Positions 6,324 through 27,207 of a stretch of 64,000 nucleotides of DNA are shown here, in pieces (within the stretch, counting starts at the first letter, position 1; each line of letters begins with the position of its first letter). The translations under genes and the position numbers were made by a program. The notes below the pieces were generated by a model. The model saw nothing but the letters and a program-made list of their open reading frames with translations, was not told the origin of the DNA and did not search any database. This DNA comes from Vicinamibacterales bacterium (lineage in GTDB: Bacteria; Acidobacteriota; Vicinamibacteria; Vicinamibacterales; SCN-69-37), in contig JBBDWL010000084.1 of NCBI GenBank assembly GCA_040902895.1, positions 19,425-83,424 on the forward strand, read 5' to 3'.

Positions 6324-6348
6324 TCAACAAGTCACACATCAACAAGTC

Positions 6349-7347
6349 TCAAATCCTGAATCCCTCACCAAGCGGATCATCGTCACCTATGACGAAAAGG
6401 TGTTCGCCGGTGATGCTGGCGCTGCCTTCGATCTCGGGGATGATGGCGGGCAGATCGCCGACAGATGTGTGCCCGAGGACGCGGCCGCGAAACGTCGTGC
6501 CGATGATGCTTTCGTGCGTGAAGACGTGATCGGCGGCCAGCATGCCCATGGCGTCGAGCACCGCCATCACCGCGCAGGTGCCGGTGCCGCACGGCGAGCG
6601 ATCCACTTCCCTGTCGGCGAATACCGTGACGTTGCGAAGGTCCGCGCCGCCTGTCGCCGGGCCGGTGAAGATGGTGCCGTAGATGCCGGTGAGTCCCGGT
6701 TCGAGCGGATGCACGACCGTGATCGCCTTCTCGACCTGCGCGCGCACCTGCACCGACAACTCCTTCAGGTCATGCAGCGACGCGGGCGCCACGCCAAGCC
6801 CGGCGGCTTCGGCATCGCAGATCGCATAAAACGCGCCGCCGAACGCGACGTCGACGGGGATCGTTCGGCTGCGCGCCTGCACGGACACACCGGCAGCCAG
6901 CACGAACGACGGCACGTTCGCGAACGACACGCTCTCCACGCGGCGCGAGCCGTCTTTGCGCTCCGACACGCGCGCCCGCGCGGCGATCCGTCCGGCCGGA
7001 GCGTCGAACACAATCTCGCGCGCGCCGGCATACTTCTCGACGCGTTCGATCAGGATCGTCGCGACCGCGATAATCCCGTGCCCGCACATCGTGCTGTAAC
7101 CCTCGTTGTGCATGAAGAGGATGCCGGTGTCCGAGCCCTCGCGCTCGGGTGGCGTCAGCAGCGCGCCGTACATGTCGGCATGTCCGCGCGGCTCGAGCAT
7201 CAGCGCGCGCCGCAAGCGATCGTGCCGCCGCTTCGCGAAGTCGCGCCGCTCGAGAATAGTCGCGCCTCTTGGCTCAGGCCAGCCGTCGACGACGAGACGC
7301 AGTGGCTCGCCGGCGGTGTGCGCGTCGATTGTGCGGAACGTGTGCAT
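6349..7347 (-). CDS. Proline racemase / 4-hydroxyproline 2-epimerase family protein
   Basis: 332 aa. N-terminus MHTFRTIDAHTAGEPLRLV. The two catalytic-Cys contexts STMCGHG and DRSPCGTGTCA (a Cys/Cys pair) favour a racemase/epimerase over the Cys/Thr dehydratase subtype. Confidence 0.8.
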   Translation of the reverse strand: MHTFRTIDAHTAGEPLRLVVDGWPEPRGATILERRDFAKRRHDRLRRALMLEPRGHADMYGALLTPPEREGSDTGILFMHNEGYSTMCGHGIIAVATILIERVEKYAGAREIVFDAPAGRIAARARVSERKDGSRRVESVSFANVPSFVLAAGVSVQARSRTIPVDVAFGGAFYAICDAEAAGLGVAPASLHDLKELSVQVRAQVEKAITVVHPLEPGLTGIYGTIFTGPATGGADLRNVTVFADREVDRSPCGTGTCAVMAVLDAMGMLAADHVFTHESIIGTTFRGRVLGHTSVGDLPAIIPEIEGSASITGEHLFVIGDDDPLGEGFRI

Positions 7348-7396
7348 GGATCGGTGAGTATAGCGACGCAGGCCTGAAGGCCTGCGCTACCCGCGC

Positions 7397-8182
7397 CTAA
7401 TCGAACAGATCCGTGATCCAGGACCAGACCTCGGCTAGTCGCGAACCGCCGGTGTCTTGCGCAGCTTCTACAGGCTGGACTGCGGGGGCCGGTGGTGGCG
7501 CCTGTGCCGCGGCCAGGGTCTGCTGGTAAAGCGCCTCGAAGTTCTGGATGCGCGAAGGCACCGGCACGATGTGGAAGGTCAGCTGGTTCGCCTCGGCGAT
7601 GAAATAGATGTCACCTGCGGCGCGCATGTCTTCGAGCACACGGCGAAGGTCGGCGGCCGTTTCAGCCGGCATGAACTTCAGGCCGATGTCGATCGCGTAG
7701 CCCATGACGTGCGTCGGCACGTCGGTATTCGCGTTCCCATTCCTACCCATCAACGCGCGCTGGTACTCCGCCGTTCGCACCAGGCTCGTAACCTCGAGCG
7801 GCCCGTGCTGGACGCGGTTGTTGATGTCGATGAGCATGCCCATCGCCGCGGGCCTCAGCGCTATGTATAGCGGCTGGTGCTCGAGGTCCTTCTGGCCGAT
7901 CGGCGACGGCCCGATCAGCCGGGGCTGGACGTGAGACAGCTCGATGGTCGATAGCGGAACGAGCTCACCGGTGCCGAGCGCGCGCTGCAGATGCTCACGA
8001 TCGGCGAACTGCGCCGTATCCAACATCGGTCGATACTCATCCTTAATAGTCAGCGCGTCCGCATGGCTCTGCCGCCGCAGCTCTGACACCATCGTGTAGA
8101 TGGCGGGATCCTGTGCCTCGACGGTCGAGTCAGAGGTCGGCAGCACGAGCACGAACGCGAGGAAGAGAACCAGGATTCTCAC
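7397..8182 (-). CDS. Exported hypothetical protein, possible LAS/M15 (VanY-like) metallopeptidase fold
   Basis: 261 aa with signal peptide MRILVLFLAFVLVLPTSDS. Ordered motifs resemble M15B: TSLVRTAEYQ (S-x-x-R-x-x-x-Q), THVMGYAIDIG (H-x-x-G-x-A-x-D), and a late TFH. This is motif-level recognition only. Confidence 0.4.
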   Translation of the reverse strand: MRILVLFLAFVLVLPTSDSTVEAQDPAIYTMVSELRRQSHADALTIKDEYRPMLDTAQFADREHLQRALGTGELVPLSTIELSHVQPRLIGPSPIGQKDLEHQPLYIALRPAAMGMLIDINNRVQHGPLEVTSLVRTAEYQRALMGRNGNANTDVPTHVMGYAIDIGLKFMPAETAADLRRVLEDMRAAGDIYFIAEANQLTFHIVPVPSRIQNFEALYQQTLAAAQAPPPAPAVQPVEAAQDTGGSRLAEVWSWITDLFD

Positions 8183-8247
8183 GCCCAGTAGTCCCGCAAC
8201 CTCGATGCCAGCGCACGCTTGAGCCTGATATACGATGCTGGTCCTGT

Positions 8248-9216
8248 ATGGCTCTGCTGCTCAATGAGCGAGACGTAAGAACTCTGCTGTCGATGGCGGA
8301 CCTCATCGAGGCGATGGAGGCCGCGCTCGCCGCGTTTTCGACCGGCAAGGTGCGCCAGCCGGTGCGCTCGATCATCGAGCTCGGCTCGCACGGGTTCTTC
8401 GGGGTCATGCCTGCCGCGTACGACGAAGCCGCCGGCGCGAAGCTCGTGACAGTCGTGCCGGGCAATCACGAGCGCGGGCTTCCGTCACATCTCGCGACGA
8501 TCCTGCTGTTCGATCCGCAGACCGGCGCGCTCGAGGCCATGCTCGACGGCCGGTACATCACCGAGGCGCGCACGGCGGCAGTGTCCGCGGTGTCGGCGCG
8601 CCATCTGGCGCGGCCCGATTCGCGCGTCGCGGCGATCATCGGATCGGGCGTGCAGGCGCGCAGCCACGCCGATGCCCTCTCCCGCGTGCTCGCGCTGCAG
8701 GAGTTTCGCGTCTGGAGCCCTTCGGCTGACCATCGCCACGCCGCGGCCCGCGACATTGAAGCGGCCACGGACGTTAAAACGACGGCTTCCCCGTCGGCCC
8801 GGGAAGCCGTGGATGGCGCCGATGTCGTGGTGCTCGTAACGTCGGCGGCGGCGCCCGTCATTGAAGATGCATGGATCACCGAAGCAGTGCACGTCATCGG
8901 CGTCGGCGCGTGCCGGCCCACTCAACGCGAGATGCCCGGCGCGCTCGTCGGCCGCGCGCGCCTCATCGTCGACTCGCGCGACGCGGCGATGAAGGAGGCG
9001 GGCGATATCCTGCTGGCGCAGAAGGATGGCGCGAACGTGCATATCGCGGCCGAGCTCGGCGAGATTTGCGCGGGACTGGCGCCCGGCCGGGAAGCGGCCG
9101 ATGACGTCACAATCTTCAAATCCCTGGGACTTGCCGTCGAAGACATCGTCTCGGCCGCGCTGGTCCTTCGACGGGCGCGCGAGGCGGGCGCCGGCACGAC
9201 CATCGAGCTCGGATGA
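8248..9216 (+). CDS. Ornithine cyclodeaminase / mu-crystallin family NAD(P)-dependent enzyme
   Basis: ORF 8113..9216 trimmed to the ATG at 8248 (MALLLNERDVRTLL...), giving 322 aa. The family pattern includes the Rossmann segment IIGSGVQARSH and C-terminal FKSLGLAVED. It lies next to a proline-racemase-family gene. Confidence 0.8.
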   Translation: MALLLNERDVRTLLSMADLIEAMEAALAAFSTGKVRQPVRSIIELGSHGFFGVMPAAYDEAAGAKLVTVVPGNHERGLPSHLATILLFDPQTGALEAMLDGRYITEARTAAVSAVSARHLARPDSRVAAIIGSGVQARSHADALSRVLALQEFRVWSPSADHRHAAARDIEAATDVKTTASPSAREAVDGADVVVLVTSAAAPVIEDAWITEAVHVIGVGACRPTQREMPGALVGRARLIVDSRDAAMKEAGDILLAQKDGANVHIAAELGEICAGLAPGREAADDVTIFKSLGLAVEDIVSAALVLRRAREAGAGTTIELG

Positions 9217-12233: not shown

Positions 12234-13313
12234 TCAGGCACCGATTTCAAGGGTCGACTTGATGCCAGTGCCGCGCTGGGTGAACCACGTCTTGTAATCG
12301 GTCCACGGAATCCTGTTGGTCAGCAGCCTGTTCATCGCGCCCGGCCAGTTCTCTTCGATCGTCACAAAGTCTTCAACCCCTCTGGCGAAGTGGCGCGGGT
12401 TGGCATTGACACTGCCGAAGACGACCTGATTGCCGAGCACGAGCAGCTGGTTGATCCGCTCGATGGGTTCTTCACTCATCGTCCCGCCGCCGGTGACGCT
12501 GAGCAGGCAGAGCACGCCATTCGGCGCGAGAATCTCCATCGCGTCGAAGACCACACGCGCGCTGCCGGTGGCTTCGAGCACGAGATCGGGCGGACCGATC
12601 TGCGCGGGAATGTCGAGAATCGTCGACTTTTCCACAGACAGATATTCGGCGCCGAGCTGCCCGGCGATTTGCGCGCGCATGTCGGACGCCGGCTCGCGGC
12701 CGACAACGACCGTGCGCAGCCCGCGGGCGCGTAACGCAGCGGCGGCAAGCAGCCCGACGGGCCCTCCGCCGAGCACCACAGCCGTCTTCGGCTTCCACGT
12801 CGTCAGGCGCCGCTGCAGCAGGTAGGCGTGATCGATTCCCTTTTCGACCACCGACATGGGCTCGAGCAGCACGGCGAACGGCTCGACGACTGGCGGGAGC
12901 TTGTTGAGGAACTGCGGCAGCTCCACGTAGTACTCGGCCATGAACCCGTGGCGCCGCATGATGCCGCGCTCCTCGTACTTGCCGCTGATGCAGCAGTCGT
13001 TCTCGCCCGCATCGCAGTTCGGGCACTCGCCGCACGGCCGGCGCACCGTGGCGACGACGAGGTCGCCCGGCTTGAAGCCGGTGACATTCCTGCCGACATC
13101 GGCCACGGTGCCGAGATTCTCATGGCCGAGGATGAGGAACTCTTCCCCCACCGGCGGTTGGCCATACAGGCCGTGATTGATCTCCGCGTCTGTGCCGCAC
13201 AAACCCACGCGCAGCATCCTCACGGCGACGTGATCGTCCGACATCTGCGGATCGGGCATGTCCCGCATGTGGATGCTGTCTTTTTCACCTGGACGAACGA
13301 CGATGGCTTTCAT
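12234..13313 (-). CDS. Zinc-dependent glucose/aldose 1-dehydrogenase (archaeal-type MDR family)
   Basis: 359 aa. MKAIVVRPGEKD..., GLCGTDAEINHG, LGHENLG, the structural-Zn Cys cluster RRPCGECPNCDAGENDCC, nucleotide fold VVLGGGPVGLLAA, and SVNANPRHF. This order of motifs mirrors Sulfolobus/Thermoplasma-type glucose dehydrogenases. The gene starts 10 nt after the stop of the decahaem cytochrome gene. Confidence 0.7.
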   Translation of the reverse strand: MKAIVVRPGEKDSIHMRDMPDPQMSDDHVAVRMLRVGLCGTDAEINHGLYGQPPVGEEFLILGHENLGTVADVGRNVTGFKPGDLVVATVRRPCGECPNCDAGENDCCISGKYEERGIMRRHGFMAEYYVELPQFLNKLPPVVEPFAVLLEPMSVVEKGIDHAYLLQRRLTTWKPKTAVVLGGGPVGLLAAAALRARGLRTVVVGREPASDMRAQIAGQLGAEYLSVEKSTILDIPAQIGPPDLVLEATGSARVVFDAMEILAPNGVLCLLSVTGGGTMSEEPIERINQLLVLGNQVVFGSVNANPRHFARGVEDFVTIEENWPGAMNRLLTNRIPWTDYKTWFTQRGTGIKSTLEIGA

Positions 13314-13323
13314 GGCGCTCCGG

Positions 13324-14586
13324 TTATTGGAAATCGGTCAGCTTGAAGTGGGGTTTCACCGGACTGGCTTTCGTCCAGTCATGGTAGTCGTGGCAGGTGG
13401 CGCACTGAGATGATGCGCCCTTGGCCGGTGCATGGCATGTTGCGCACGTCGCGACTGCCGGCATCAGCACGTCTGACGTGTTGCGGCTCGAGGGCGCGGC
13501 CGTGTGGCACGAGGCGCACTGCACCATCAGATGCGGCGCGTGATCGAATCGCGCCTTGGGCATCCATCGGGCAGTCAGGTTAACCGGCGCGATCTGCGGC
13601 GCGCGATCCGGCGCCGCGGCACTGCTTACCGCATGACAGTCGGCGCAGCCCTTGGTCCAGAGGTAATGCTCGGCGCGGGCAGCGCGCTGCGACACCCACT
13701 CCGCGGCCGTGCGCGGCTGCGGCGCGGGATCGGCTGGAAAGTTCAGCGGCAGACGGCGCGCCGGCACGTCCCGCTCGGTGACCGCTGCCGGATTCGCCGC
13801 GATATACGCCTGCAGCGACTCCGTGACGAACGCACGGACGGCCGCCGGCTGCGCATGCGGCGCGGCTGTGTCCAGGCGCGGGTCGAACTCGAGCGTGTGG
13901 CAGCGCGCGCACTGCGCTTCGTAGGTGATCGAGGCCATCAGGCCAGTCACGCTGCGGCCGCGTGACGAGGCACGCGCGATCTCGGGCTTGTGGCACGTCG
14001 CACACTCCAGCGTTTCAGGGCCGTTGGGCCCTCGAAGGTTGTCGCTCGCATGCACCGCGTGATTGAACTTCAGGGCGCCGGGATCCGCCGCGCCGCTGCG
14101 CATCACGGCGAACTCCGGATGGTCCTGCGGGAAGCGGCCTGCCTTCACGAGCCGCGACCCGGCATGACATTCCACGCATTGCGTGTCGTTGGTCAGGGCA
14201 AGCGGGCCGCGACCCTCGTGTTCGCGGTGACAGTCGGCGCACGCCGGGAAATTCAACCCGGTTGAATTTCCCGTTGAATTGGCCGGCGGATGGCCTGGCG
14301 CATCGTGACACGTGAGGCAGGCGTTCTCGGTCACGTGCGCGCGGAACGACGTGTCGCGAAGATGGCACACCTCGCACTTCATTTCGACGAAGGCGTGCGC
14401 CGCCGACACGGGCCCGCTGCTGTACGGCGCGCGGCTTCCGGCGGCCGCCATGCCGCCGAGCCACAGCAGTCCGGCCAGCGGCGCGAGAATCGACAGACCC
14501 GTCCGCCACCGCCGCATGCCGCCCGCATGCTTGAAGTAATTGAGATCGATGCGCTGCGCCAGCTTCTTGGCGCTTCTCGTCCTCAT
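13324..14586 (-). CDS. Membrane-anchored decahaem c-type cytochrome
   Basis: ORF 13324..14673 trimmed to the ATG at 14586 (MRTRSAKKLAQ...), which sits 1 nt after the upstream stop. There is one N-terminal TM/signal anchor (LSILAPLAGLLWLGGMAAA). There are ten CXXCH motifs: CEVCH, CLTCH, CADCH, CVECH, CATCH, CARCH, CADCH, CASCH, CATCH, CATCH. Confidence 0.85.
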   Translation of the reverse strand: MRTRSAKKLAQRIDLNYFKHAGGMRRWRTGLSILAPLAGLLWLGGMAAAGSRAPYSSGPVSAAHAFVEMKCEVCHLRDTSFRAHVTENACLTCHDAPGHPPANSTGNSTGLNFPACADCHREHEGRGPLALTNDTQCVECHAGSRLVKAGRFPQDHPEFAVMRSGAADPGALKFNHAVHASDNLRGPNGPETLECATCHKPEIARASSRGRSVTGLMASITYEAQCARCHTLEFDPRLDTAAPHAQPAAVRAFVTESLQAYIAANPAAVTERDVPARRLPLNFPADPAPQPRTAAEWVSQRAARAEHYLWTKGCADCHAVSSAAAPDRAPQIAPVNLTARWMPKARFDHAPHLMVQCASCHTAAPSSRNTSDVLMPAVATCATCHAPAKGASSQCATCHDYHDWTKASPVKPHFKLTDFQ

Positions 14587-14587
14587 G

Positions 14588-15511
14588 TCAGTACCGCAAC
14601 GCCACCACGATGTGCACGCCGGCCAGCACCAGCAACGCGATCGAGACCGGCACGTGCACGAGCTGCCATGCATGCAGCAGCCGGTGCAGGCGCGCCTGCT
14701 CCATCAGCTGGCGCTCTTCCTCGCAGATGTTCTCCAGATCCGCGATCGACGGATGAAAGGTCGGCGGCACCAGTGCGCGCACCTTCTCGAACCGTAATGC
14801 CGACTGCGGACGATCGGCGAGCGGGTGCCGCGGCGTCGGCGCGTCGACGAACGGACGCATGTCTCGCGCATAGAACTCGCGTACCGGCGCTGATTCCTCA
14901 GCGTCAATCCGCGCGGTGCTGGCAAGCGCGGAGGCCGCCTCGTTCGCCATCACGCCCAGCCTCGCCTGTGCCGACGCGGCAGGAGCGCCCGGCGCCACGG
15001 TTTCGACCTCCAGCCGGCCGCACGCGTCCGCGACGATGGTGTCGGCCTCGGCGAGCAGCTGCGCTCGCACGTGGTCAATCTGATCGAAGATCGTTTCCAT
15101 CGGCACTTCGCGCAGCATGCGGCGCGGCAGGGTGTGCTGCAGGTACGCGCCCAGCAGTCCGCTGACGATGACGAACACGAAAAGCCACATCAGTACGAAC
15201 GTCAGCCCGGTGCCGAATGACAGCCCTGCGTGCAGCACGATCACGGGAAAGCTCAACATGCCGAGCCACAGGTGCCCCCGCATCCACGTTTGCGCGCGAC
15301 CGATGCGCCAGATCGGAAACTTCTTCCGCGCGCCGAGCAGTCCGGCATAGAGCATCATGCCGAACCCGGCGATGCCGAACGCCAGTCCCGGCACGGTGCC
15401 GCCGCCGGGTGATGCCACCGACGCCGTATAGATCGCATAGAGCACCACTGACGCGGCGAACAGCCCCGCGGTCGCGACGGCCCAGCGGCGATGCGTGTGG
15501 TCGATCAACAC
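14588..15511 (-). CDS. Five-TM membrane protein, predicted dihaem b-type cytochrome
   Basis: 307 aa with a GTG start at 15511, 5 nt after the upstream TAA. TM3 (HLWLGMLSFPVIVLH) and TM5 (HVPVSIALLVLAGVH) each carry two His exactly 14 residues apart (H-x13-H), as in bis-His dihaem cytochromes b. A loop of about 150 aa between TM4 and TM5 is predicted to be cytoplasmic by the positive-inside rule. No family name recognised. Confidence 0.55.
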   Translation of the reverse strand: MLIDHTHRRWAVATAGLFAASVVLYAIYTASVASPGGGTVPGLAFGIAGFGMMLYAGLLGARKKFPIWRIGRAQTWMRGHLWLGMLSFPVIVLHAGLSFGTGLTFVLMWLFVFVIVSGLLGAYLQHTLPRRMLREVPMETIFDQIDHVRAQLLAEADTIVADACGRLEVETVAPGAPAASAQARLGVMANEAASALASTARIDAEESAPVREFYARDMRPFVDAPTPRHPLADRPQSALRFEKVRALVPPTFHPSIADLENICEEERQLMEQARLHRLLHAWQLVHVPVSIALLVLAGVHIVVALRY

Positions 15512-15516
15512 GGACG

Positions 15517-17706
15517 TTACTTGCTCGTTTCTTCGGTTCCGGCCGCCGGCTCACGCCGGTCCATCGTGACGCCCTGCACCGATGCGAAGAACTGCAGCGG
15601 CTCCACGCGGTGCGCGGCGTCGTGCGGGCACGCATAGACGCAGCTCGGCTCCGCGTGCTCCATGCAGAGATCGCAGCCCGTCGCCTTGCGCGCGGTCGTG
15701 GCGATCTGCCGCCCGGGCTGCGCCGTATCGGGCGCGAGCACCTGGAACGGGTGCATGTTGAGATTGCCGTACGGACAGTTGTTGGCGCACAGGCCGCAGC
15801 CGATGCACCAGTCCTCGATGATGATCTCGAGAGAATTGCGGCGCCGGATGGATCCGACCGGGCATCCCACCATGCAGAGCGGATCGCGGCACTGGCGGCA
15901 CGATGTCGCGACCAGGTACTTGTCGAAGCGCAGCCCTTCGCGCACGAGCCGCGTGACACCATCGTGCGCGTCGGCGCAGGCCTTGACGCATTGATCGCAT
16001 CGCGTGCACTTCTCCAGGTCCAGCAGCAGCAGGCTCTGGGCCTCCATCAGCCCCTGCGAGAGAAAATCGTTGAGCGGCGTGGCTTCGAGCGAGCGGGCGC
16101 GCTGCACGTTCATCGCGGCACGTTCGGCCGCCACCTGCTCGAGGCTCGCGCGGATGTCGGGGAATCGCTCGAGCATCAGCGCAAAGTCCTCCCCCTGGAT
16201 GCGCACGACGTCCACATGATCGAGCGCGGTGCAGGTCGCGGTGCGCACGCCGCCGCCGAGGAGGCCCATTTCGCCGAAATACCCGCCACGCCCCGTGTAC
16301 GTCAGCACGAGCTCCCCGCCGGCGTGGCTCTCCGACACCTTCACGAACCCGAGCCGCACGAGATAGAACGCGTCCGCGGGATCGCCCTGCCGCACGATCA
16401 CATCGCCCGGTGAATACCGCAGCAGCTCCACGCGATCACGCAGGTAGGCGATGAAGTCGGCGGGCATTCCCGAGAAGACGGGCACGCTCTTCAAGTGGGT
16501 GTCGAGCGCGCGCTGGCGATACTGGCGATCGAGCTGCGCGCGGAAGGTCTTGTTCTTCTGGAGGATGTCGAGCACGTTTCGCAACATCTCGAGCGCGACC
16601 ACTTTCGTCTTCGCGCGCACGGTGGCCGACCGCGGATGAAAACTCATGCAGGTCATCTCGCCGAACAGCTCGCCGGCGCCAATCTGCGCGATCGGGTTGT
16701 CGTACGGCAGATCCACCGGCGCATCGATCGGAATCCAGCGCTTCCCCGTTTCCTCCGCGCGCGTGTGCTCCTGGCGGTCCGCGAGCCGGCTTCGGATCCG
16801 CGACAGCCAGCCTTCGTGCGTGTCCTCCTGCTTCACGTGCGCCATCGGCGTGCCGATATACACGTCGACGGTCCCCTCGAGAATGTAGAACGCCGTCGAA
16901 CCGAACTCCCCTTCCCGGCAGATCACATCACCGGGATTGAACTCGCGGCGCACGATGGCGTTGCGATTCAGCTCGAGGAAGGTGCCTGACACGCCCTTGA
17001 ACACTGGCAGCTGCAGCATCCACTCGGCCTCGAGCGCCTCGCCACCGCCCAGCTCGGTGGCAATGACGCGTTTGTTCGTCAGCGCCCCCGTCGGGCAGGA
17101 GACCATGCACTCGCCGCAGGAGACGCAGGTCGAGCTGCCCATCGGCACATTCAGATCGAACGCGATGCCCGCCGCGTAACCGCGGCCGGTCCGCCCGATG
17201 ACGTGGTTCTGCTTCACGTCGTCGCAGCCACGGACGCAGCGATCGCACAGGATGCACGATTCGTGATCGACCGCGATGCTCAGGGACGAATCGTCGCGGC
17301 CGCGCGGCGACAGCCGCCGCGCAAACCGTGGTTCGCCGCCAGGCGCCACCGCGCCCATCTGCGCCGACATCGTCTCGAGCTCGCAGTCGCCGCTCGCCTG
17401 CTGGCGTCCGCATGGCGACGGATGATCCGACATCAGCAATTCGACGAGCGTCCGGCGGGCCTGCTTCACCGGCTCGACATCGGTCTTGACGACCATCCCC
17501 TGGTCGCACTCACGGATGCACGCTGCCGCATACACGCGGGCGCCCACATCCACGACGCAGACGCGGCACACGCCGATCGGTGTTTGATTCTGCTGATGGC
17601 AGAGTGTGGGGATGGGCACGCCGCGCATTCGAGCGGCATCGAAAATCGTGGTGCCTTTCGGGACCGTGACTTCGTTGCCGTCGATGGTGAGGGTGACGGT
17701 GCTCAT
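15517..17706 (-). CDS. Fe-S oxidoreductase fusion: NuoG-type N-terminus (2Fe-2S + 4Fe-4S) / two cNMP-binding domains / C-terminal multi-[4Fe-4S] ferredoxin module
   Basis: ORF 15517..17982 trimmed to the ATG at 17706 (MSTVTLTIDGNEVTVPKGTTIFDAA...), which overlaps the upstream stop (ATGA), giving 729 aa. Motifs: TLCHQQ..CRVC..C (2Fe-2S); HPSPCGRQQASGDC; CILCDRCVRGC; CVSCGECMVSCP; two phosphate-binding cassettes FGEMTCMSFHPRSATVRA and FGEMGLLGGGVRTATCTA; then CTRCDQCVKAC, CRQCRDPLCMVGCP, CIGCGLCANNCP and CDLCMEHAEPSCVYACP. Confidence 0.8.
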   Translation of the reverse strand: MSTVTLTIDGNEVTVPKGTTIFDAARMRGVPIPTLCHQQNQTPIGVCRVCVVDVGARVYAAACIRECDQGMVVKTDVEPVKQARRTLVELLMSDHPSPCGRQQASGDCELETMSAQMGAVAPGGEPRFARRLSPRGRDDSSLSIAVDHESCILCDRCVRGCDDVKQNHVIGRTGRGYAAGIAFDLNVPMGSSTCVSCGECMVSCPTGALTNKRVIATELGGGEALEAEWMLQLPVFKGVSGTFLELNRNAIVRREFNPGDVICREGEFGSTAFYILEGTVDVYIGTPMAHVKQEDTHEGWLSRIRSRLADRQEHTRAEETGKRWIPIDAPVDLPYDNPIAQIGAGELFGEMTCMSFHPRSATVRAKTKVVALEMLRNVLDILQKNKTFRAQLDRQYRQRALDTHLKSVPVFSGMPADFIAYLRDRVELLRYSPGDVIVRQGDPADAFYLVRLGFVKVSESHAGGELVLTYTGRGGYFGEMGLLGGGVRTATCTALDHVDVVRIQGEDFALMLERFPDIRASLEQVAAERAAMNVQRARSLEATPLNDFLSQGLMEAQSLLLLDLEKCTRCDQCVKACADAHDGVTRLVREGLRFDKYLVATSCRQCRDPLCMVGCPVGSIRRRNSLEIIIEDWCIGCGLCANNCPYGNLNMHPFQVLAPDTAQPGRQIATTARKATGCDLCMEHAEPSCVYACPHDAAHRVEPLQFFASVQGVTMDRREPAAGTEETSK

Positions 17707-19400
17707 GACGGACGGTTCCCAGCAGGTGCCGCGAAACAGACGCCGGCGGCGCAGGCGCGGCTGCGGACGTGCGCTTCGACCTCGTCGCCGAAATGCTTCA
17801 TGACCGACGCGATGGGCACGGGCACGACCTGGCCCAGTCCACAAATCGAGGTCAGGCGCAGCGCGTGGCCGAGCTCCTCCATCAGGACAAGATCGTCGGC
17901 GCCGCGAAGTCCCGAAGTCCACGACGTGAGAATGTCGACCAGCTTCTGCGAACCCGTGCGGCACGGCACGCACTTGCCGCATGACTCGTTGCGGAAGAAG
18001 CGCACGGCGTTGACCGCCATGTCGAGCATGCAGGCGCGCTCGTCGCAGACGACAATGGCGCCAGAGCCGACGGTCGCGCCCGCCTGGGTCATGGCTGTCC
18101 AGTCGAGCGGCAGGTCCAGCATCGACTCCGGCAGGTAGCCGCCCGCAGGCCCGGACGGCGCAAACGCTTTGATCGTGTGGCCCGGCAGGGCGCCTCCGGC
18201 GTAGTCGTTGACGATGGCGCGGTAGGGCGTGCCCATCGGCACTTCGTACACGCCGGGGCGCTGCACGTCACCGCTCACGCCAACGAACTTCACGCCGACC
18301 GAACCATCGCGGCCCTGCGCCTTCAGCCAGTCGGTGCCGCGCGCGAGAATCACGGGGACAAAGAAGAACGTCTCGACGTTGTTGATGACCGTGGGTTTCT
18401 GCCAGAGCCCCTGCTGTCCCGGGAACGGCGGCTTGTTGCGCGGCTCCGCGCGCTTGCCTTCGATCGCTTCGAGCAGCGCGCTCTCCTCTCCGCAGATGTA
18501 CAGCCCGGGACTGACGAAGACTTCGAGATCGAACGCGAGATCCGTCCCGAGAATGCGATCGCCGAGCAGCCCCTCGCGGTAGCAGCGCGCGATCTCGCCG
18601 GCCATCACGTGTTCCTGATGCGTGTACTCGTGCCGGATATAGAAGATCCCCTGCCGGGCGCCCGTGACGAGCCCGCCGAGAATCATGCCTTCGATGATCA
18701 GGTGCGGCGCGTGCGTCATCAGGAACCGGTCCTTGATGGTGCCGGGCTCGCTTTCATCCGCGTTGCACACGATGAACTTGTCGGGGCCCGGCTGGGCGCG
18801 CACGATCTCCCACTTCATTCCGGTTGGAAAGCCGGCGCCGCCGAGACCGCGCAGCCCGCTTTCCTTGAGTTTCGCGATGAGCCCCGTCCAGTCGCGCGAT
18901 TGCGCGTACTGGCGCAGCACGCCGTACTGCTCGCCCGCTGCGTACGGATCCGACCGCACGACCGCATGCGGAGGATGCGGCGGCTCCGGCAGCGGCTGCC
19001 CCCCAAGCGCCGTCTGGATCAGCGAAGCCGCAGACGCGTCATCGACGTTCTCGTAGATGACGTCATTGATCGCGATGGCCGGCGCCAGATCGCATCGCCC
19101 AAGACAGGAGACGTGCTGAATGTTGACGTCCTGACCCTGGAAGCGGCGCACGAGGCTGTCGCGGAGGCGGCCGGCGCCGTATCGATGGCAGGACATGTCG
19201 CCGCAGACACGAACTTCGGCGCGTGATGGCGGCGTGAGAAAGAAATGCGGGTAGAAACTGGCCACCGACTGCAGCCGGTACAGCGGCATGTCCAGCTGTT
19301 CTGCGAGCGCGCGCAGGGCGCCCTCAGGCAGGTAGCCATGAACCCGCTGGATGGCGCGAAGCTCATCGAACACGGGTGAGTGCGTGGCGGTCCGATTCAC
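17703..19400 (-). CDS. NuoE-NuoF fusion (NADH-binding FMN/Fe-S flavoprotein module of complex-I/HoxF type)
   Basis: 565 aa. The N-terminal NuoE-like thioredoxin-fold 2Fe-2S domain has VASFYPHF, CGDMSCH and SCLGRCDLAPA. The NuoF part has GLRGLGGAGFPTGMKWE, CNADESEPGT and the N3 cluster ligands ESCGKCVPCRTG. Confidence 0.85.
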   Translation of the reverse strand: MNRTATHSPVFDELRAIQRVHGYLPEGALRALAEQLDMPLYRLQSVASFYPHFFLTPPSRAEVRVCGDMSCHRYGAGRLRDSLVRRFQGQDVNIQHVSCLGRCDLAPAIAINDVIYENVDDASAASLIQTALGGQPLPEPPHPPHAVVRSDPYAAGEQYGVLRQYAQSRDWTGLIAKLKESGLRGLGGAGFPTGMKWEIVRAQPGPDKFIVCNADESEPGTIKDRFLMTHAPHLIIEGMILGGLVTGARQGIFYIRHEYTHQEHVMAGEIARCYREGLLGDRILGTDLAFDLEVFVSPGLYICGEESALLEAIEGKRAEPRNKPPFPGQQGLWQKPTVINNVETFFFVPVILARGTDWLKAQGRDGSVGVKFVGVSGDVQRPGVYEVPMGTPYRAIVNDYAGGALPGHTIKAFAPSGPAGGYLPESMLDLPLDWTAMTQAGATVGSGAIVVCDERACMLDMAVNAVRFFRNESCGKCVPCRTGSQKLVDILTSWTSGLRGADDLVLMEELGHALRLTSICGLGQVVPVPIASVMKHFGDEVEAHVRSRACAAGVCFAAPAGNRPS

Positions 19401-19455: not shown

Positions 19456-20826
19456 ATGGTGATTGGTCACGCGCCCGGAGCGCTGATGCTTGCCGCCGTG
19501 GCCGTCTTCAGCGCGTCGTTCACCCACTCGCTTCGCGCGCGCGAAGCTCGACCACCAGCCGCCATCGCGCGAGTCCCCCCCTCTGAGCGCGTACTCGCGC
19601 AGACCGCCGCAGCCTTTACCGGTCCGGGCTCCTGTGCCGCCGCCGCCTGCCATGGCGCCGTTCGCCCCGTTGCCGGCAGCCGGATTCTGCAGACCGAATA
19701 CACGACGTGGATCGCGCAGGACCGTCACGCCGCCGCAACGGAGGTGCTGTCGAATGCCGCGTCGGTGCGCATGGCGCGCATTCTCGGCGTCGGCGACCCA
19801 AAAACCGCCCCCAGATGTCTTGCGTGCCACAGCCTGGACGCGCCTTCGGCGAGCCAGGCGCGTACGTTCGCGAACGAAGGCGTGAGCTGCGAAGCGTGCC
19901 ACGGGCCCGCAAGCCGGTGGCTCGGCCCGCATACCACCAAGGGATGGACGCACGCACAGTCGGTGCAGCTCGGCATGTACGACACGAAGGATGTGGTGAA
20001 GCGCACCGAAAAGTGCCTCACCTGCCACCTGGGCACTCCTGAAAAATTTGTCGACCACGAGATGATCGCCGCCGGGCATCCGGATCTCGTATTCGACCTG
20101 GAAGCCTACAGCGCCGCAATGCCTCGGCACTGGCACGCGGCGACGCCGGCCGATCCCTTTGCTCCGGTGCGGTCGTTCAGCATCGGACAGCTCGTGCACC
20201 TGCGAAATGCGCTCGATCGTCTCGCCCACCGCGCAAAAACGTCGTGGCCTGAATACGGCGAGCTCGATTGTTTCGCCTGCCACCACAGCCTCACACCGGC
20301 AAGCGACAGCTGGCGCCAGGCTGCCGGCTACGAGAACCGACGTCCCGGCAATCCGCCGCTCAACGTCTCGCGCTGGACGACCGCCCAGCATGTGCTGGCG
20401 GCATTCGACGGACAAGCGGCCGATGAGATGCGCCCGGTGATGATTGCCCTGCAGCGCGAGGCGGGCCGGCTTCGCGTGGATGCCGACGCCATCGCCGGTC
20501 AGGTTGCGCGGGCGCGAGGCATCCTCGATCGCGCCATTGGACGCGCCGTCGCCGCGCGGCCTGACGCCGCTGTGGCGCGAAGGTTGCTGCGCGCGATTGC
20601 ATCCGACGCGCCTGCCATCGCGATCCAGGGTGAGCGTGCGGCCGAACAGGCAGCCATGGCCATGGAAACGCTCTACACCGCCACGGCCGGCACCGGCAGC
20701 AACACCGCCGTGCGCACGGCTTTCGACGAGTTGTTCCGGCAGTTCCAAAGTCCCAGCAGCTACGACCCGCGGCGTTTCGTCGCGCAGGTACGGAAACTCG
20801 AGGCCGCTCTTGGCGCGCCGCGCTGA
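19456..20826 (+). CDS. Exported pentahaem c-type cytochrome (cytochrome c554-like family)
   Basis: ORF 19420..20826. I prefer the ATG at 19456 (MVIGHAPGALMLAAVAVFSASF, signal-like), but 19420 is not excluded. Haem motifs: CAAAACH (CX4CH), CLACH, CEACH, CLTCH, CFACH. It is divergent from the NuoEF operon with an intergenic region of about 55 nt. Confidence 0.7.
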   Translation: MVIGHAPGALMLAAVAVFSASFTHSLRAREARPPAAIARVPPSERVLAQTAAAFTGPGSCAAAACHGAVRPVAGSRILQTEYTTWIAQDRHAAATEVLSNAASVRMARILGVGDPKTAPRCLACHSLDAPSASQARTFANEGVSCEACHGPASRWLGPHTTKGWTHAQSVQLGMYDTKDVVKRTEKCLTCHLGTPEKFVDHEMIAAGHPDLVFDLEAYSAAMPRHWHAATPADPFAPVRSFSIGQLVHLRNALDRLAHRAKTSWPEYGELDCFACHHSLTPASDSWRQAAGYENRRPGNPPLNVSRWTTAQHVLAAFDGQAADEMRPVMIALQREAGRLRVDADAIAGQVARARGILDRAIGRAVAARPDAAVARRLLRAIASDAPAIAIQGERAAEQAAMAMETLYTATAGTGSNTAVRTAFDELFRQFQSPSSYDPRRFVAQVRKLEAALGAPR

Positions 20827-22615
20827 GGCTCGACGCCGCGGCATCCGCGCCGGCATCCGGCTTGCCTTCGCACTGGCCGGCATCGTAATCGCGAGCGATC
20901 GCGTCGGCACGCAGAACACACCGGCGAATCGCGCGGGCGGGCCCGCCCGTATTCTCACTGCGGCTGACGTGCGCGCCGTCCTCATCACGGCCGCCACCGC
21001 GCTCGGCGACGACACACTCGCTGCGGCCGTCGTCGATCGCACCGGCAATATCCTCGGCGTCTACGCGCGTCCCGGCGCGGCGGCACGGACGCCGGACATC
21101 GCCGTTTCTCTTGCGCGGACCGGTGCCATGTTCGCGAACGATCAGGCCCCGCTATCGTCCCGCACCGTCCGGTTCATCAGCGGCATTCACTTTCCTCCGG
21201 GTGTCCGGAACACGTCGAACGCCGCTCTGTACGGAGTGGAAAACATCAACCGCGGCTGCACGGTGGACGATGCGGGTGATGCGATCTTCAATGCGCCGTT
21301 TCCGCGGCCGGCATCGATTGAGGGCGCGTTCGGGTCCGGCGCGGACGGAATGCCGCTGCCATGTGAGCCGTCGGACACGCGCGGATGTGCGCGCGGCGGG
21401 CCCATGCGCGATCTCGGGGGACACGAGGTCGAGTCAGTGGGCATCACCACTGGAAAAGCCGATGTGCTCGACACCGGCCAGGATCATCCCGCGACCGTGC
21501 CCGTGAACCCGGGTGGGATCCCGATCTACCGCGAGGGCAAGGTTGTTGGTGGCATTGGCGTCGCCGGCGTGCGGCCCGACTTCGCGGAATTCGCGGCGAC
21601 GCTTGCCGCGGCGGGCTCCGGGCGAGGCCTCGATTTCTCGGAACCGCTTGGCGCGCCGGGCGCGGTGTTCATCGATGGCCTACGCCTGCCGTTTTTCGGC
21701 GGCTGCACGTCAATCCCGTGCATCCGTCAGGCGCTTCGCTCCCGCCCCGCAGGATCCTCGCCTGGCTCGTTCTCGTCTGGCGGCTTCATCGTGGAGCCTC
21801 GCGATGGCCTGCAGGCGCCCGAGCATTATCTGATCGGCCCGCGTGCGAGCACGCGCCCCGGCGGCCTCACGGAAGCGGAGGTTCAGCAGATCGTCGCGCG
21901 AGCCGTCGACGTGTCGCTGCGCACGCGCGCGATGATTCGCCTGCCGTTCAACCAGCCGGCGCGCATGACGATGGGCATTTCGGATGAGGATGGGGAAATC
22001 CTCGCGCTCTATCGCATGCCCGACGGCACCGTGTTCTCGTCAGATGTCGCGATGACCAAGGCGCGCAACGCGTATTACTTCAGCACGCGCGAGGGATACG
22101 AGGTGCTGCGCGGCTATGCCGAGACGAATCCGCACGAGCCGTATCGGTGGGAGCCGGAACCGCCGGCCGGGCAGGGATGGGCGGTGACGGCGCGCACCCT
22201 CAGCTTCGGCGGACAGCCCCTGTTTCCGCCCGGCGTCGACCTGGAGGAACAGCTGCATGGCGAGGAGCCGAAGCCGGGGCCCTTCTTCGATCTCTTCGTC
22301 TATGACACGGTGAATCCATGCACGGAAGGCCCGGGTCCGAGCCGCGGCGGCAACCGCGCCTATCTCAATCAAAGCGGGATCGTCTGGTTTCCCGGCAGTG
22401 TGCCGCTGTATCGCGACGGGCGCCTGATTGGAGGATTAGGCGTCAGCGGTGACGGCGTGGAACAGGACGACTATGTCTCGCTGCTGGCCAGCGAAGGTTT
22501 CCACCCGCCGGCGGCGCTGCGCGTCGACAACAGCGTCATGCGCGACTCGCATGGCCGCGCCGTGCGCCTGCCGTATCTGAAGCTTCCGCGGGTTCCCCAA
22601 ATTCCACGGCGTTAG
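20810..22615 (+). CDS. Exported protein with two GlcG/HbpS-like (DUF336) putative haem-binding domains
   Basis: ORF 20444..22615 overlaps the preceding cytochrome gene for 380 nt. No in-frame ATG precedes the signal-like segment RRRGIRAGIRLAFALAGIVIA, so the best candidate start is the TTG at 20810 (start uncertain). The DUF336-like signature appears twice: ...DRTGNILGVYARPG...NPGGIPIYREGKVVGGIGVAG and ...DEDGEILALYRMPDG...FPGSVPLYRDGRLIGGLGVSGDGVEQDD. Confidence 0.6.
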   Translation: MARRAEARRRGIRAGIRLAFALAGIVIASDRVGTQNTPANRAGGPARILTAADVRAVLITAATALGDDTLAAAVVDRTGNILGVYARPGAAARTPDIAVSLARTGAMFANDQAPLSSRTVRFISGIHFPPGVRNTSNAALYGVENINRGCTVDDAGDAIFNAPFPRPASIEGAFGSGADGMPLPCEPSDTRGCARGGPMRDLGGHEVESVGITTGKADVLDTGQDHPATVPVNPGGIPIYREGKVVGGIGVAGVRPDFAEFAATLAAAGSGRGLDFSEPLGAPGAVFIDGLRLPFFGGCTSIPCIRQALRSRPAGSSPGSFSSGGFIVEPRDGLQAPEHYLIGPRASTRPGGLTEAEVQQIVARAVDVSLRTRAMIRLPFNQPARMTMGISDEDGEILALYRMPDGTVFSSDVAMTKARNAYYFSTREGYEVLRGYAETNPHEPYRWEPEPPAGQGWAVTARTLSFGGQPLFPPGVDLEEQLHGEEPKPGPFFDLFVYDTVNPCTEGPGPSRGGNRAYLNQSGIVWFPGSVPLYRDGRLIGGLGVSGDGVEQDDYVSLLASEGFHPPAALRVDNSVMRDSHGRAVRLPYLKLPRVPQIPRR

Positions 22616-22617
22616 GT

Positions 22618-23424
22618 TCAAATCCGGAACGTCTGCCCCTCGCCCGCCGTGTCGGTTGCGGCGAAGACCTGCTGCGCCGCCCGTTTGATCTCCACCAGAT
22701 CCTCATCACTGCGGCCTGGCTTGTGGTGGAAGAGCCAGAGCGCGCCAATGCTGTTCGTGCCGGCAAACTCCGCGCACGTGCGCCAGTCGCTGTGCCCCCA
22801 GCCGGCATGCGCGCCGATCTCGTCAGGGGTGAAGTGGGAGTCGAGAATGATTGCGGCGGCGCCGTGCGCGAAACGCGCGAGCGCGGCGTCATGCGACGCG
22901 CTGCCGAACTCATGATCGGTTGCATAGACCAGATCACGGTGCTCACCGCGCACCCGGTAGCCGAGACATCCCCCGGGATGATTGAGCGGCATCGCCGTGA
23001 TCTCGAATCCCTCGATCGAAATATCCCCTGGCCCGACGATCGTGATCGAGGGACGATTGGGCAGACGATCGACCGGCACCGGGAAAAAGGGCGATCGAAA
23101 GATCGTCTCGACCCAGTCGGGCTCGCTGGACTCGAACTTCGGCGCAAAAATTCTCGGACTCCACCCGGGCTGATACAACTGGGCGAGAAACGGAAGACCC
23201 TGCACGTGATCCCAGTGATAGTGCGTCAGCAAGATCGGCAGCTCACGCGGCTCGCCTTTCAATGCGACGCCGACGCCAACGATGCCGGATCCGGCATCGA
23301 GGATCAGGGTGCGCCCGGAGCGCTCGTTCGTGAGCTCGATACACGGCGTATTGCAGCCGTGGCCGATGGCGCTCGGCGTCGCCCACGGCACCGACCCTCG
23401 CACGCCCCAGAAGCGAACCAGCAT
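22618..23424 (-). CDS. Metallo-beta-lactamase-fold hydrolase
   Basis: ORF 22618..23625 trimmed to the ATG at 23424 ([17 protein letters not shown]...), which overlaps the upstream TGA by 1 nt, giving 268 aa. HxHxDH metal motif in LLTHYHWDHVQGLPF. Later His/Asp ligand contexts: LNHPGG, ATDHE, LFHH. Confidence 0.75.
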   Translation of the reverse strand: MLVRFWGVRGSVPWATPSAIGHGCNTPCIELTNERSGRTLILDAGSGIVGVGVALKGEPRELPILLTHYHWDHVQGLPFLAQLYQPGWSPRIFAPKFESSEPDWVETIFRSPFFPVPVDRLPNRPSITIVGPGDISIEGFEITAMPLNHPGGCLGYRVRGEHRDLVYATDHEFGSASHDAALARFAHGAAAIILDSHFTPDEIGAHAGWGHSDWRTCAEFAGTNSIGALWLFHHKPGRSDEDLVEIKRAAQQVFAATDTAGEGQTFRI

Positions 23425-24534
23425 CAGCGCCCTCCCGCGAGCTGGCGATTGGATTCGCGCACGCGCGCGGCAAGCTGCCGCAGCAGCTCCTGCGTGCGCG
23501 CGGGATCCTCGACGAGCAGGCGGCCAAATGATGCCTTCGTGATGCGGCGAAGCTGCACGTCGGTCATCGCGGTCACCGTCGCGGAGCGAGGCTCGTCGAG
23601 CAACAGGCTCATCTCGCCCACCCACGAGCCCGGGCCAAGTTCCGCCAGCACCGCGGCCTCGCGTGTGACGCGCAGCCTGCCGCGTTCGACCAGATAGGCT
23701 TCAGTGCCGGTTTCTCCTTCTCTCATCACCACCTCGCCCGCGCGTGCAAGCCGGTAGCCGCACGTCTCGAACGGACACGGATACGCGGCCGTGTGATACA
23801 GCTTGGCGCACACAGTCGTGCGGCCCCACTGCCGGCGGTACGCCGCGGCCGCGAGCAGGGCGCCCGCGACAGGGCCGGCGATGTAAATCCATTGATCGCG
23901 CAGGGCCGGCACGAGCAGCGCCGGAGCGAGACTCCGCGCGGGATTGACACTGGTTCCCGAAATCGGCGCTTCGATCGTCACCAGCGCCACGACCAGGGTG
24001 CCGGCGATGATGCCGGTGCGCGCCGCGAGCGCCGGCTTGTTCACACACACGAAAATCAGAAACACCAGCGCGAAGGTCGCGGCGGTTTCAGCGGCCAGGG
24101 CGCCCATCCACGTCCATCCCTCCCCGGGCGCTGTCAGGGCAAGCTGAACGCTGCGGGCGATATCGCCCCAGACGAGCGCCGCAAGCGCCACGCCCGCGAC
24201 CGCGCCGGTCAGCTGCGCCACGATGTACGGCAGCACGTCGCGGCCTGGAAATTTCCCGAGACGCCAGAATGCAAGCGTGACCGCCGGATTGATGTGACCT
24301 CCGCTGCGCTGGCCGAGCGGCGAATAAACCACGAATGTCGCGCCTCCTGCGAAGAGCAGGCCCGTGATAAATCGGCGCAGCGCCGGCGGTTCGATGACCG
24401 GGACACGTGACCCCGCGCCCCACATCGCGGTCACCGCCGAGACGCCCAGGAACAGCATCACCGCGGTGCCGGCGAACTCGCAGGCATAGATGAGCGTGCG
24501 TCCGCGCATGGTTGTCGCATAATACCCGTCCGCC

Positions 24535-24536
<2 letters not shown>
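23424..24536 (-). CDS. MIP-family aquaporin fused to a C-terminal cNMP-binding domain
   Basis: ORF 23424..24599 with the start at ATG 24536 (MADGYY...); ATG 24509 is an alternative. Six TM helices with both NPA boxes ([18 protein letters not shown]). A Cys/His-containing linker ([19 protein letters not shown]) follows, then the cNMP domain [24 protein letters not shown]...[18 protein letters not shown]. Confidence 0.85.

Positions 24537-27194
<2,658 letters not shown>

Positions 27195-27207
<13 letters not shown>

Follow-up and report, generated by a model that had tools for sequence, protein, structure and literature searches.

A candidate transmembrane electron conduit joining an NADH-oxidising flavoprotein to multihaem cytochromes c in Acidobacteriota

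What does a complex-I-type NADH input module do when its genes share an operon with a five-helix membrane protein and a decahaem cytochrome c? The question is raised by positions 13324 to 19400 of a 64,000-nucleotide stretch of DNA from a Vicinamibacterales bacterium (contig JBBDWL010000084.1; the whole stretch is referred to below as the window), in which four minus-strand genes, g1 to g4, are packed head to tail. An earlier note had interpreted this operon as a transmembrane electron conduit. That interpretation is supported by the present analysis, which adds to it two cyclic-nucleotide-monophosphate (cNMP)-binding domains, a four-cluster ferredoxin, and links to the previously named ptd operon and to an outer-membrane module. 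On balance, the products of g1 to g4 probably act as one inner-membrane redox complex that takes electrons from NADH to the periplasm without a dedicated quinone-reducing subunit.

Gene layout and cofactor sites

The genes and domains concerned, including those of the divergently transcribed neighbour g5, are as follows.

17703 to 19400, minus strand: g1, a NuoE-NuoF fusion of 565 amino acids (aa), assigned by Pfam, NCBIfam, PDB relatives and motif conservation
17062 to 17706, minus strand: g2, N-terminal domain (about residues 1-215), HoxU/NuoG-N-terminus-like, assigned by Pfam, NCBIfam and cysteine motifs
16132 to 17013, minus strand: g2, middle part (about residues 232-525), two cyclic-nucleotide-binding domains, assigned by Pfam cNMP_binding (E 3.6e-36)
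15517 to 16044, minus strand: g2, C-terminal domain (about residues 555-729), a DmsB/HydN/NrfC-type ferredoxin with 16 Cys in four groups
14588 to 15511, minus strand: g3, a protein of five transmembrane (TM) helices, predicted dihaem cytochrome b from its hydrophobic helices and four TM histidines
13324 to 14586, minus strand: g4, a signal-anchored periplasmic decahaem cytochrome c with 10 CXXCH motifs and one N-terminal TM helix
19420 to 20826, plus strand: g5, a c554-like periplasmic cytochrome, divergently transcribed, with 4 CXXCH and one CX4CH motif

An open-reading-frame check of the minus strand recovered all four operon genes at the coordinates given previously and reproduced their junctions. 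g1 and g2 overlap by ATGA, 5 nt (CGTCC) separate the TAA stop of g2 from the GTG start of g3, and a single nucleotide lies between the TGA stop of g3 and the ATG start of g4. The set and its motifs are not a product of chance, since the g3 family alone comprises 2376 clusters at 50% identity (E <= 0.001). A scan of the 12-21 kb region for sigma-70 promoters and terminators gave nothing above shuffled sequences.

The flavoprotein g1 matches 2Fe-2S_thioredx, Complex1_51K, SLBB and NADH_4Fe-4S in Pfam (E from 1e-27 to 4.5e-41) and nuoF_fam in NCBIfam (E 4e-130), and it contains GLRGLGGAGFPTGMKWE. Its N1a-type 2Fe-2S site is formed by C66, C71, C99 and C103 and its N3 4Fe-4S site by C474, C477, C480 and C520. 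All eight cluster cysteines are kept in 68 homologs together with the loop for flavin mononucleotide (FMN) and NADH, which bears out the earlier description of a NuoE-NuoF fusion with FMN/NADH, 2Fe-2S and N3 sites. Among solved structures, g1 is closest to HydB/HoxF/FdsB-type proteins, which supply the flavoprotein part of NAD-linked hydrogenases and formate dehydrogenases; the fused FdsB-type chain 7e5z_B in the PDB covers residues 10-539. g1 has no C-terminal ferredoxin extension. The HydB-type proteins that it resembles carry such an additional domain, and electron bifurcation was considered and rejected because of its absence. A CxxxxC pair at the C-terminus (residues 550-555), behind the N3 domain, is 97% conserved among the 68 homologs.

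The Fe-S protein g2 had been described as a NuoG-N-terminus/poly-ferredoxin protein; the HoxU/NuoG-like N-terminus stands, whereas the two cNMP domains and the four-cluster pattern of the ferredoxin had been overlooked. The N-terminus consists of Fer2_4 and 2x[4Fe-4S] (Pfam), with HoxU and FeFe-hydrogenase A6 as the best domain-level NCBIfam matches and subunits of NAD-linked hydrogenases and formate dehydrogenases as the best solved relatives. A 2Fe-2S site (C36, C47, C50, C63) and two CxxCxxCxxxC 4Fe-4S sites are present. As in the HoxEFU diaphorase and the complex I N-module (NuoEFG), the FMN/NADH site, N1a, N3, N1b and two 4Fe-4S sites are conserved in g1-g2. Unlike in those systems, the His-ligated cluster site is a cysteine short, E and F form a single protein, the HoxU-like part shares a polypeptide with cNMP domains and a four-cluster ferredoxin, and no hydrogenase, formate dehydrogenase or Q-module accompanies them.

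Between this N-terminus and the C-terminal ferredoxin lie the two cNMP_binding domains. Both phosphate-binding cassettes are canonical (FGEM...RSATVRA and FGEM...RTATCTA), and the FGE...R[ST]A pattern is kept in 72 g2 homologs. Cysteines 263, 353 and 492 within these domains, one of them inside a phosphate-binding cassette, are 94-100% conserved. The C-terminal domain, with domain-level NCBIfam matches to HydN and DmsB, carries 16 conserved cysteines in the four groups typical of DmsB/HydN/NrfC four-cluster ferredoxins (C567-577, C603-615, C634-644 and C678-693), which correspond to four predicted cluster sites. Fifteen of the 16 are invariant and C681 is conserved at 97%; with a mean conservation of 0.83, this is the most conserved part of g2.

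The membrane subunit g3 has five hydrophobic helices, with H80-x13-H94 on TM3 and H286-x13-H300 on TM5, as had been read from the sequence before. A comparison of 70 sequences, the most distant at 34% identity, shows no exception to H80, H94 and H286 and at least 90% conservation of each of H300 and H280, so the TM histidines are kept in homologs. Lys plus Arg counts of 2 at the N-terminus and 6 in the TM2-3 loop, against 0 in each of the TM1-2 and TM3-4 loops, place these first two segments in the cytoplasm, together with the large 150-aa loop, for which the earlier note had proposed the same location. From this charge bias TM3 and TM5 are predicted to be parallel, with one His pair near each membrane face. 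The AlphaFold2 (AF2) model is confident (predicted local distance difference test, pLDDT, 91; predicted template modelling score, pTM, 0.81) and has five TM helices, with a helical domain separating TM4 from TM5.

Two His pairs about 13 residues apart on parallel TM helices are also the arrangement of the dihaem cytochromes b of the ferric reductase/DUF4405 group, and haem b binding has been demonstrated for a DUF4405 protein (PMC11334425). At the level of curated profile thresholds and solved folds, g3 did not match this group. The window protein stays below the Pfam cutoff for DUF4405 (24.6 bits vs 26.7) and is claimed by no Pfam family, and weak Pfam matches occur among the 70 family members to DUF4405 (16), Ferric_reduct (13) and Ni_hydr_CYTB (4). 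A tblastn search of g3 against plasmids gave no match. The spacing between the TM3 and TM5 motifs in g3 relatives runs from 138 to 688 residues, and the TM core stays about 50% identical.

A membrane protein of this kind might instead serve the quinone pool. Electrons from g1-g2 would then reach quinone through the cytoplasm-side haem of g3, and g4 with the outer g3 haem would form a quinol dehydrogenase like CbcL, ImcH or CymA, the whole amounting to a non-pumping NADH:quinone plus quinol:cytochrome c oxidoreductase. Quinone sites near one haem are found in many dihaem cytochromes b, such as FdnI, NarI and the b domain of CbcL; the few Ni_hydr_CYTB matches among the g3 relatives point the same way, and the g3 sequence is compatible with a quinone pocket. 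However, neither g3 nor g4 reaches threshold with the NrfD, NarI, NapC/NirT or HydC/FdnI families, a two-haem relay between an Fe-S donor inside and a haem c acceptor outside needs no quinone, and the precedent of NOX, FRE and MsrQ, which arrange H-x13-H pairs in this way, is quinone-free. Coupling to quinone is accordingly considered unlikely.

On the periplasmic side, g4 contains exactly 10 CXXCH motifs and one N-terminal TM helix, in agreement with its earlier description as a signal-anchored cytochrome. The 23-residue cytoplasmic tail before this helix is conserved, which argues for such an anchor. Ten further invariant histidines are present beyond the CXXCH motifs, so the haems are consistent with all being bis-His and with electron transfer rather than catalysis. 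The nearest solved relative is the Geobacter dodecahaem protein 3ov0. Translation of g5 probably begins at M13 (19456).

Conservation of the gene set in other genomes

A genome scan using one genome per species found a g3 relative in at least 559 species, and the best 80 loci were analysed. Co-occurrence with the g3 homolog was counted over distances of up to 10 kb, using 65 loci whose flanking DNA was long enough or, for the more distant neighbours described below, 48 loci with full flanks. The best 80 loci are mostly from Acidobacteriota (Vicinamibacterales, Terriglobia, Bryobacterales), with others in records labelled Rokubacteria, Verrucomicrobia, Chthoniobacterales and Betaproteobacteria; the closest is a Vicinamibacterales metagenome-assembled genome with 92% g3 identity. 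The parts of the system recur as follows.

NuoE, NuoF and HoxU-like domain: 63 of 65 loci
cNMP/ferredoxin protein: 65 of 65 loci
decahaem cytochrome: 65 of 65 loci
divergent c554-like tetrahaem (g5): 59 of 65 loci
all parts together: 57 of 65 loci

The gene order is kept in relatives from different classes of Acidobacteriota as well as in records that bear the labels Rokubacteria, Verrucomicrobia and Betaproteobacteria. One locus (L087, 38% g3 identity) has a permuted order of c554, g3, decahaem, NuoE, NuoF and HoxU-cNMP-ferredoxin. Near this cluster (at 1-28 and 6208-8289) lie genes for a fusion of glucose-6-phosphate dehydrogenase with a cNMP-binding domain and for a transketolase, which hints at cyclic-nucleotide control of the NAD(P)H supply as well.

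The NADH module is absent from L009, L062 and the truncated L077. The first two carry a stand-alone cNMP/ferredoxin protein of about 520 aa, and such proteins are also found in L085 and L088. In L085, which is of Planctomycete type, and in about 25 aquatic metagenome loci, a cNMP/ferredoxin protein, a long-loop g3, a decahaem, a tetrahaem and a pentahaem protein are encoded with no NADH module in cis, and soil metagenome loci carry the NuoEF form. Because the core occurs without the NADH module, the latter appears to be an exchangeable electron-input module on a fixed Fe-S/b/c core, usually with the tetrahaem protein.

These counts also bear on whether g1-g2 could serve as diaphorase to a hydrogenase or formate dehydrogenase with its genes elsewhere and stand beside g3-g4 by accident. 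The best solved relatives of g1 and of the g2 N-terminus are indeed subunits of NAD-linked enzymes of these two kinds. Yet wherever g3-g4 occur, so does the cNMP/ferredoxin protein to which the diaphorase domain is covalently joined; 57 of 65 loci retain the set, which also survives a change of gene order, and a catalytic subunit adjoins it in none of the loci. More precisely, among the genes that match the window's own proteins and lie at most 10 kb away in the 65 species loci, none encodes a catalytic hydrogenase or formate dehydrogenase subunit or part of a Q-module, and Pfam searches of the window neighbours revealed no NiFe, FeFe or Mo/W catalytic subunit and no Q-module. An incidental placement is therefore regarded as extremely improbable. 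Profile and structure-sequence searches likewise place the set in no known enzyme.

Proposed electron route, its control and its outer partners

The analysis establishes which genes are present and recur together, that their cofactor sites are conserved and which way the topology is biased; the subunit contacts, haem b, direction of flow, gating, acceptor and quinone independence in the following route are what we infer for g1-g4. NADH would be oxidised at the FMN of g1, and electrons would pass from the N3 cluster to the HoxU/NuoG-like Fe-S domain of g2 and on to the four-cluster ferredoxin at its C-terminus, which may dock on the cytoplasmic helical domain of g3. Within g3, two stacked bis-His b haems would carry them across the membrane, from a cytoplasm-side haem held by H80/H286 to a periplasm-side haem held by H94/H300. 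The membrane-anchored decahaem g4 would take electrons from g3 and hand them to the soluble c554-like g5, from which they would probably reach an extracytoplasmic acceptor through a barrel and a ten-haem cytochrome encoded at 27195-33049. This putative outer-membrane module is encoded with a cyclase in the following genes.

27195 to 29255, plus strand: outer-membrane protein of 686 aa with a signal peptide, a CarboxypepD_reg beta-sandwich, about 18 long strands and a C-terminal Phe
29255 to 33049, plus strand: cytochrome of 1264 aa that has 10 CXXCH motifs and, at its C-terminus, LVIVD beta-propeller repeats; the stop of the barrel gene and the start of this gene overlap
33051 to 35072, plus strand: adenylate/guanylate cyclase with a CHASE2 sensor, starting 2 nt after the large cytochrome gene

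Together with an M48 peptidase gene, these form a tightly packed plus-strand operon. In 38 of 48 loci, homologs of the barrel and the large cytochrome are encoded no more than 10 kb from the g3 homolog, usually directly after the decahaem gene. A CHASE2 cyclase homolog is found near g3 in 18 of 48 loci, and also in L115, L134, L136 and L141. The AF2 model of the 686-aa protein has an N-terminal beta-sandwich and about 18 long strands, and Foldseek matched it to AlgE (E 1.7e-11), followed by maltoporin and OccD porins. The large ten-haem protein gave a partial, sub-threshold match to ExtM (90.7 bits vs a cutoff of 800). ExtM is the cytochrome of a Geobacter selenite/tellurite reduction operon.

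The CHASE2 cyclase, presumably co-transcribed with the outer module, is a candidate source of ligand for the cNMP domains of g2. Lying between the two Fe-S halves of that protein, these domains could gate the wire in response to cyclic AMP or cyclic GMP (cAMP/cGMP). As negative charge would leave and the proton would stay inside, flow along this route would dissipate the membrane potential, as in NADPH oxidases and ferric reductases, and tight control would therefore be needed. We put forward tentatively, as a possibility that is more doubtful than the conduit itself, that a second messenger directly gates an Fe-S wire here: cAMP/cGMP bound to the g2 domains would open or close the path from a complex-I-type NADH head to a quinone-free, NOX-like route over two b and more than 20 c haems to the exterior.

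The same wiring might serve a purpose other than respiration, namely reduction of extracellular Fe(III) for uptake, or production of superoxide or reduced metals for a Fenton-type attack on organic matter, as with eukaryotic FRE and NOX. An NAD(P)H module, two TM b haems and a charge-dissipating flow are the logic of NOX and FRE, tight second-messenger control would suit such a use, and the carriers mostly belong to taxa known as aerobic soil heterotrophs. In addition, an HbpS-like, haem/iron-related protein and a GH63/MGH1-like hydrolase recur as neighbours. On the other hand, more than 20 c-type haems and an outer-membrane module are heavy equipment for iron uptake alone, and no iron transporter was seen among the homologs tracked in the loci. 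Such a non-respiratory role seems unlikely, about as much so as coupling to quinone.

The first of these neighbours is a tandem HbpS/GlcG-like protein with a signal-like/twin-arginine-like N-terminus.

20810 to 22615, plus strand: tandem HbpS/GlcG-like protein, overlapping the g5 stop

Its gene probably starts at a TTG overlapping the stop of the c554-like gene. Of the 48 loci, 20 have a homolog close to the cluster; where the record is labelled Rokubacteria, this gene comes immediately after that of the decahaem. The second, a GH63/MGH1-like glycoside hydrolase of 890 aa (24535-27207, plus strand), stands between the operon and the outer module and has a homolog near the cluster in 32 of 48 loci; it has no evident link to electron transfer.

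As for direction, outward flow is favoured because it is downhill from NADH and aided by the membrane potential, while inward flow to NAD+ is disfavoured because it runs uphill against both with no coupling module present. With inward flow, donors in the periplasm or outside the cell would supply electrons that pass by way of g4 and g3 to NAD+, much as Hmc and Tmc of sulfate reducers bring in electrons from the periplasm. In principle, NuoEF/HoxEFU modules can run in reverse, and the composition of the operon recalls Hmc/Tmc. Such a flow would, however, oppose the membrane potential, and reduction of NAD+ needs donors near -320 mV. An ion-translocating or bifurcating module is missing, g1 is without the C-terminal ferredoxin domain of HydB-type proteins, and no periplasmic hydrogenase or formate dehydrogenase adjoins the genes. 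Inward operation is thus judged highly improbable, more so than quinone coupling or the non-respiratory role.

Several points weigh against the NADH-to-periplasm conduit itself, the case for which is built entirely from sequence comparison and predicted structures. The NuoG/HoxU-type His-ligated cluster site of g2 reads H95-x3-C99-x8-C108, in a form seen in 72 of 72 homologs; since this is one Cys short, a gap in the Fe-S chain of g2 is possible. Binding of haem b by g3 is something we infer, on good grounds, from its sequence, and comparison with characterised proteins gave no match: neither Foldseek of the g3 model against the PDB (at E <= 0.001), nor hmmsearch of the g3 profile against PDB sequences, nor hhalign of that profile against E. 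coli MsrQ (probability 0.7%) and YodB. g3 may, moreover, hold a quinone site after all. With regard to the outer membrane, the AF2 barrel model is only moderately confident (pLDDT 61), the modelled barrel appears to resemble 18-stranded porins (AlgE) rather than the 26-stranded MtrB, which makes a haem route through the membrane doubtful, and in the window the outer module lies 8 kb from the g1-g4 operon.

Related systems, significance and further neighbours

The closest described system to the g1-g5 operon is ptd, the likeness being one of architecture, with the Ptd proteins compared by description only. ptdABCDEFG is a putative porin-cytochrome cluster of reportedly unknown function, carried by marine and saline Alpha- and Gammaproteobacteria, Nitrospirales, Planctomycetes and others. 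It encodes a pentahaem protein (PtdA), a porin (PtdB), an FAD/NAD(P) oxidoreductase (PtdC), a tetrahaem protein (PtdD), a cNMP-binding protein with 4Fe-4S clusters (PtdE), a ferric-reductase-like membrane protein (PtdF) and a decahaem protein (PtdG) (Elbon et al., bioRxiv 10.1101/2023.11.21.568154). In architecture, PtdD corresponds to g5, PtdE to the middle and C-terminus of g2, PtdF to g3 and PtdG to g4. The PtdE combination of cNMP-binding domains and 4Fe-4S clusters in one protein is found in g2 residues ~232-729, and the ferric-reductase-like protein followed by a decahaem, with a tetrahaem in the cluster, is found in g3, g4 and g5. Both systems also have an oxidoreductase of NAD(P) type in the cytoplasm, a porin in the outer membrane and one more multihaem protein, and the aquatic g3 relatives resemble ptd in having the cNMP/ferredoxin protein, g3, decahaem, tetrahaem and pentahaem in a row.

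As a full operon, the window system departs from ptd in its input and outer partners. PtdC is a separate protein, whereas the window has NuoE-NuoF and a HoxU-like domain fused to the PtdE-like protein, a module that takes the position in which PtdC would work, and in place of the PtdA pentahaem and PtdB porin it has the 18-strand-type barrel and the 1264-aa LVIVD ten-haem protein, 8 kb off. ptd was described from saline water and the window system is from soil Acidobacteriota; none of the analysed locus contigs, and no accession given by a look-up of one protein cluster, is in Table S7 of the ptd preprint. The earlier statement that the set is not a recognised characterised complex thus holds insofar as no known enzyme was matched, but a related core, ptdDEFG, had already been named in that 2024 preprint. 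The operon is a variant of an already named, uncharacterised ptd-like kind, and its NADH-module form is new. A literature search retrieved no description of the NuoEF form, and the papers that name NuoEF beside multihaem cytochromes concern other matters.

Among membrane subunits, NOX, FRE, STEAP, MsrQ and DUF4405/PepSY-like cytochromes (PMC11334425) share with g3 His pairs 13 apart on parallel, non-adjacent TM helices (TM3 and TM5 in g3). This group also resembles the proposed system in a cytoplasmic NAD(P)H-linked donor and a quinone-free, charge-moving flow to an outside acceptor. In contrast to g3, carriers of the ferric-reductase domain have six rather than five TM helices, and the g3 family contains a cytoplasmic helical insert of 110-700 aa. 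Their donor is a bound flavin domain instead of an Fe-S chain, and the acceptor in the window is a multihaem cytochrome c.

The likeness to Hmc/Tmc proposed in the earlier note extends to the overall logic, which is shared with Qrc and DsrMKJOP: multihaem c on the periplasmic side, cytochrome b in the membrane and an Fe-S protein that faces the cytoplasm, the g2 C-terminus being a DmsB/DsrO-like four-cluster ferredoxin as in that group. It goes no further than analogy, as the defining subunits are not matched. Membership in Hmc/Tmc was rejected on Pfam and NCBIfam searches, which gave no HdrD/CCG, NarI/HdrE-type or NrfD-type match and no match of g4 to the HmcA/TmcA models. Unlike in this group, the cytoplasmic partner in the window is an NADH flavoprotein and the flow is likely outward.

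Rnf-MmcA of Methanosarcina acetivorans and CbcL/ImcH of Geobacter likewise consist of an inner-membrane module feeding a multihaem cytochrome at its outer face. Rnf-MmcA draws on ferredoxin and an ion-pumping Rnf, and CbcL/ImcH on the quinol pool, whereas the window system would receive its electrons directly from an NADH flavoprotein; no ion-translocating or quinol-oxidising family was detected in it. The extracellular electron transfer (EET) systems of peat Acidobacteriota, EET1 (porin/NHL/13-haem) and EET2 (MtrC/DmsE/porin), are other gene sets than that of the window, and no NADH or cNMP module is mentioned in the preprint describing them (Fiorito et al. 2026).

The g3 family, with relatives in these hundreds of species genomes and thousands of protein clusters, has its best matches mostly in soil and peat Acidobacteriota, and we know of no member that has been studied experimentally. 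If the proposed wiring is true, it would be a quinone-independent path from NADH to extracellular acceptors, a route by which mostly aerobic heterotrophs dispose of reducing power once oxygen runs out, and a rare instance of cyclic-nucleotide control built into an electron-transfer protein. If the gating is also true, hundreds of species, mostly of one abundant soil phylum, would possess a regulated electron vent, which would be a candidate for the long-sought enzyme of NADH-dependent extracellular reduction or superoxide production by heterotrophs. The operon also supplies a mechanistic reading for the marine ptd operon and, as a compact NADH-to-electrode module, may be of interest to bioelectrochemistry.

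Further genes around the operon complete the picture of the window. A Zn-dependent glucose/alcohol dehydrogenase (Glu_dehyd_C; 12234-13313, minus strand) is encoded 10 nt downstream of the decahaem gene, a position that it holds only in close Vicinamibacterales-type relatives (6 of 48 loci). An MIP aquaporin fused to a cNMP-binding domain is encoded at 23424-24599 on the minus strand and an MscS-type channel with the same kind of fusion at 36252-37712 on the plus strand. Together with the CHASE2 cyclase gene, both lie less than 20 kb from g2, in a neighbourhood rich in cyclic-nucleotide signalling.

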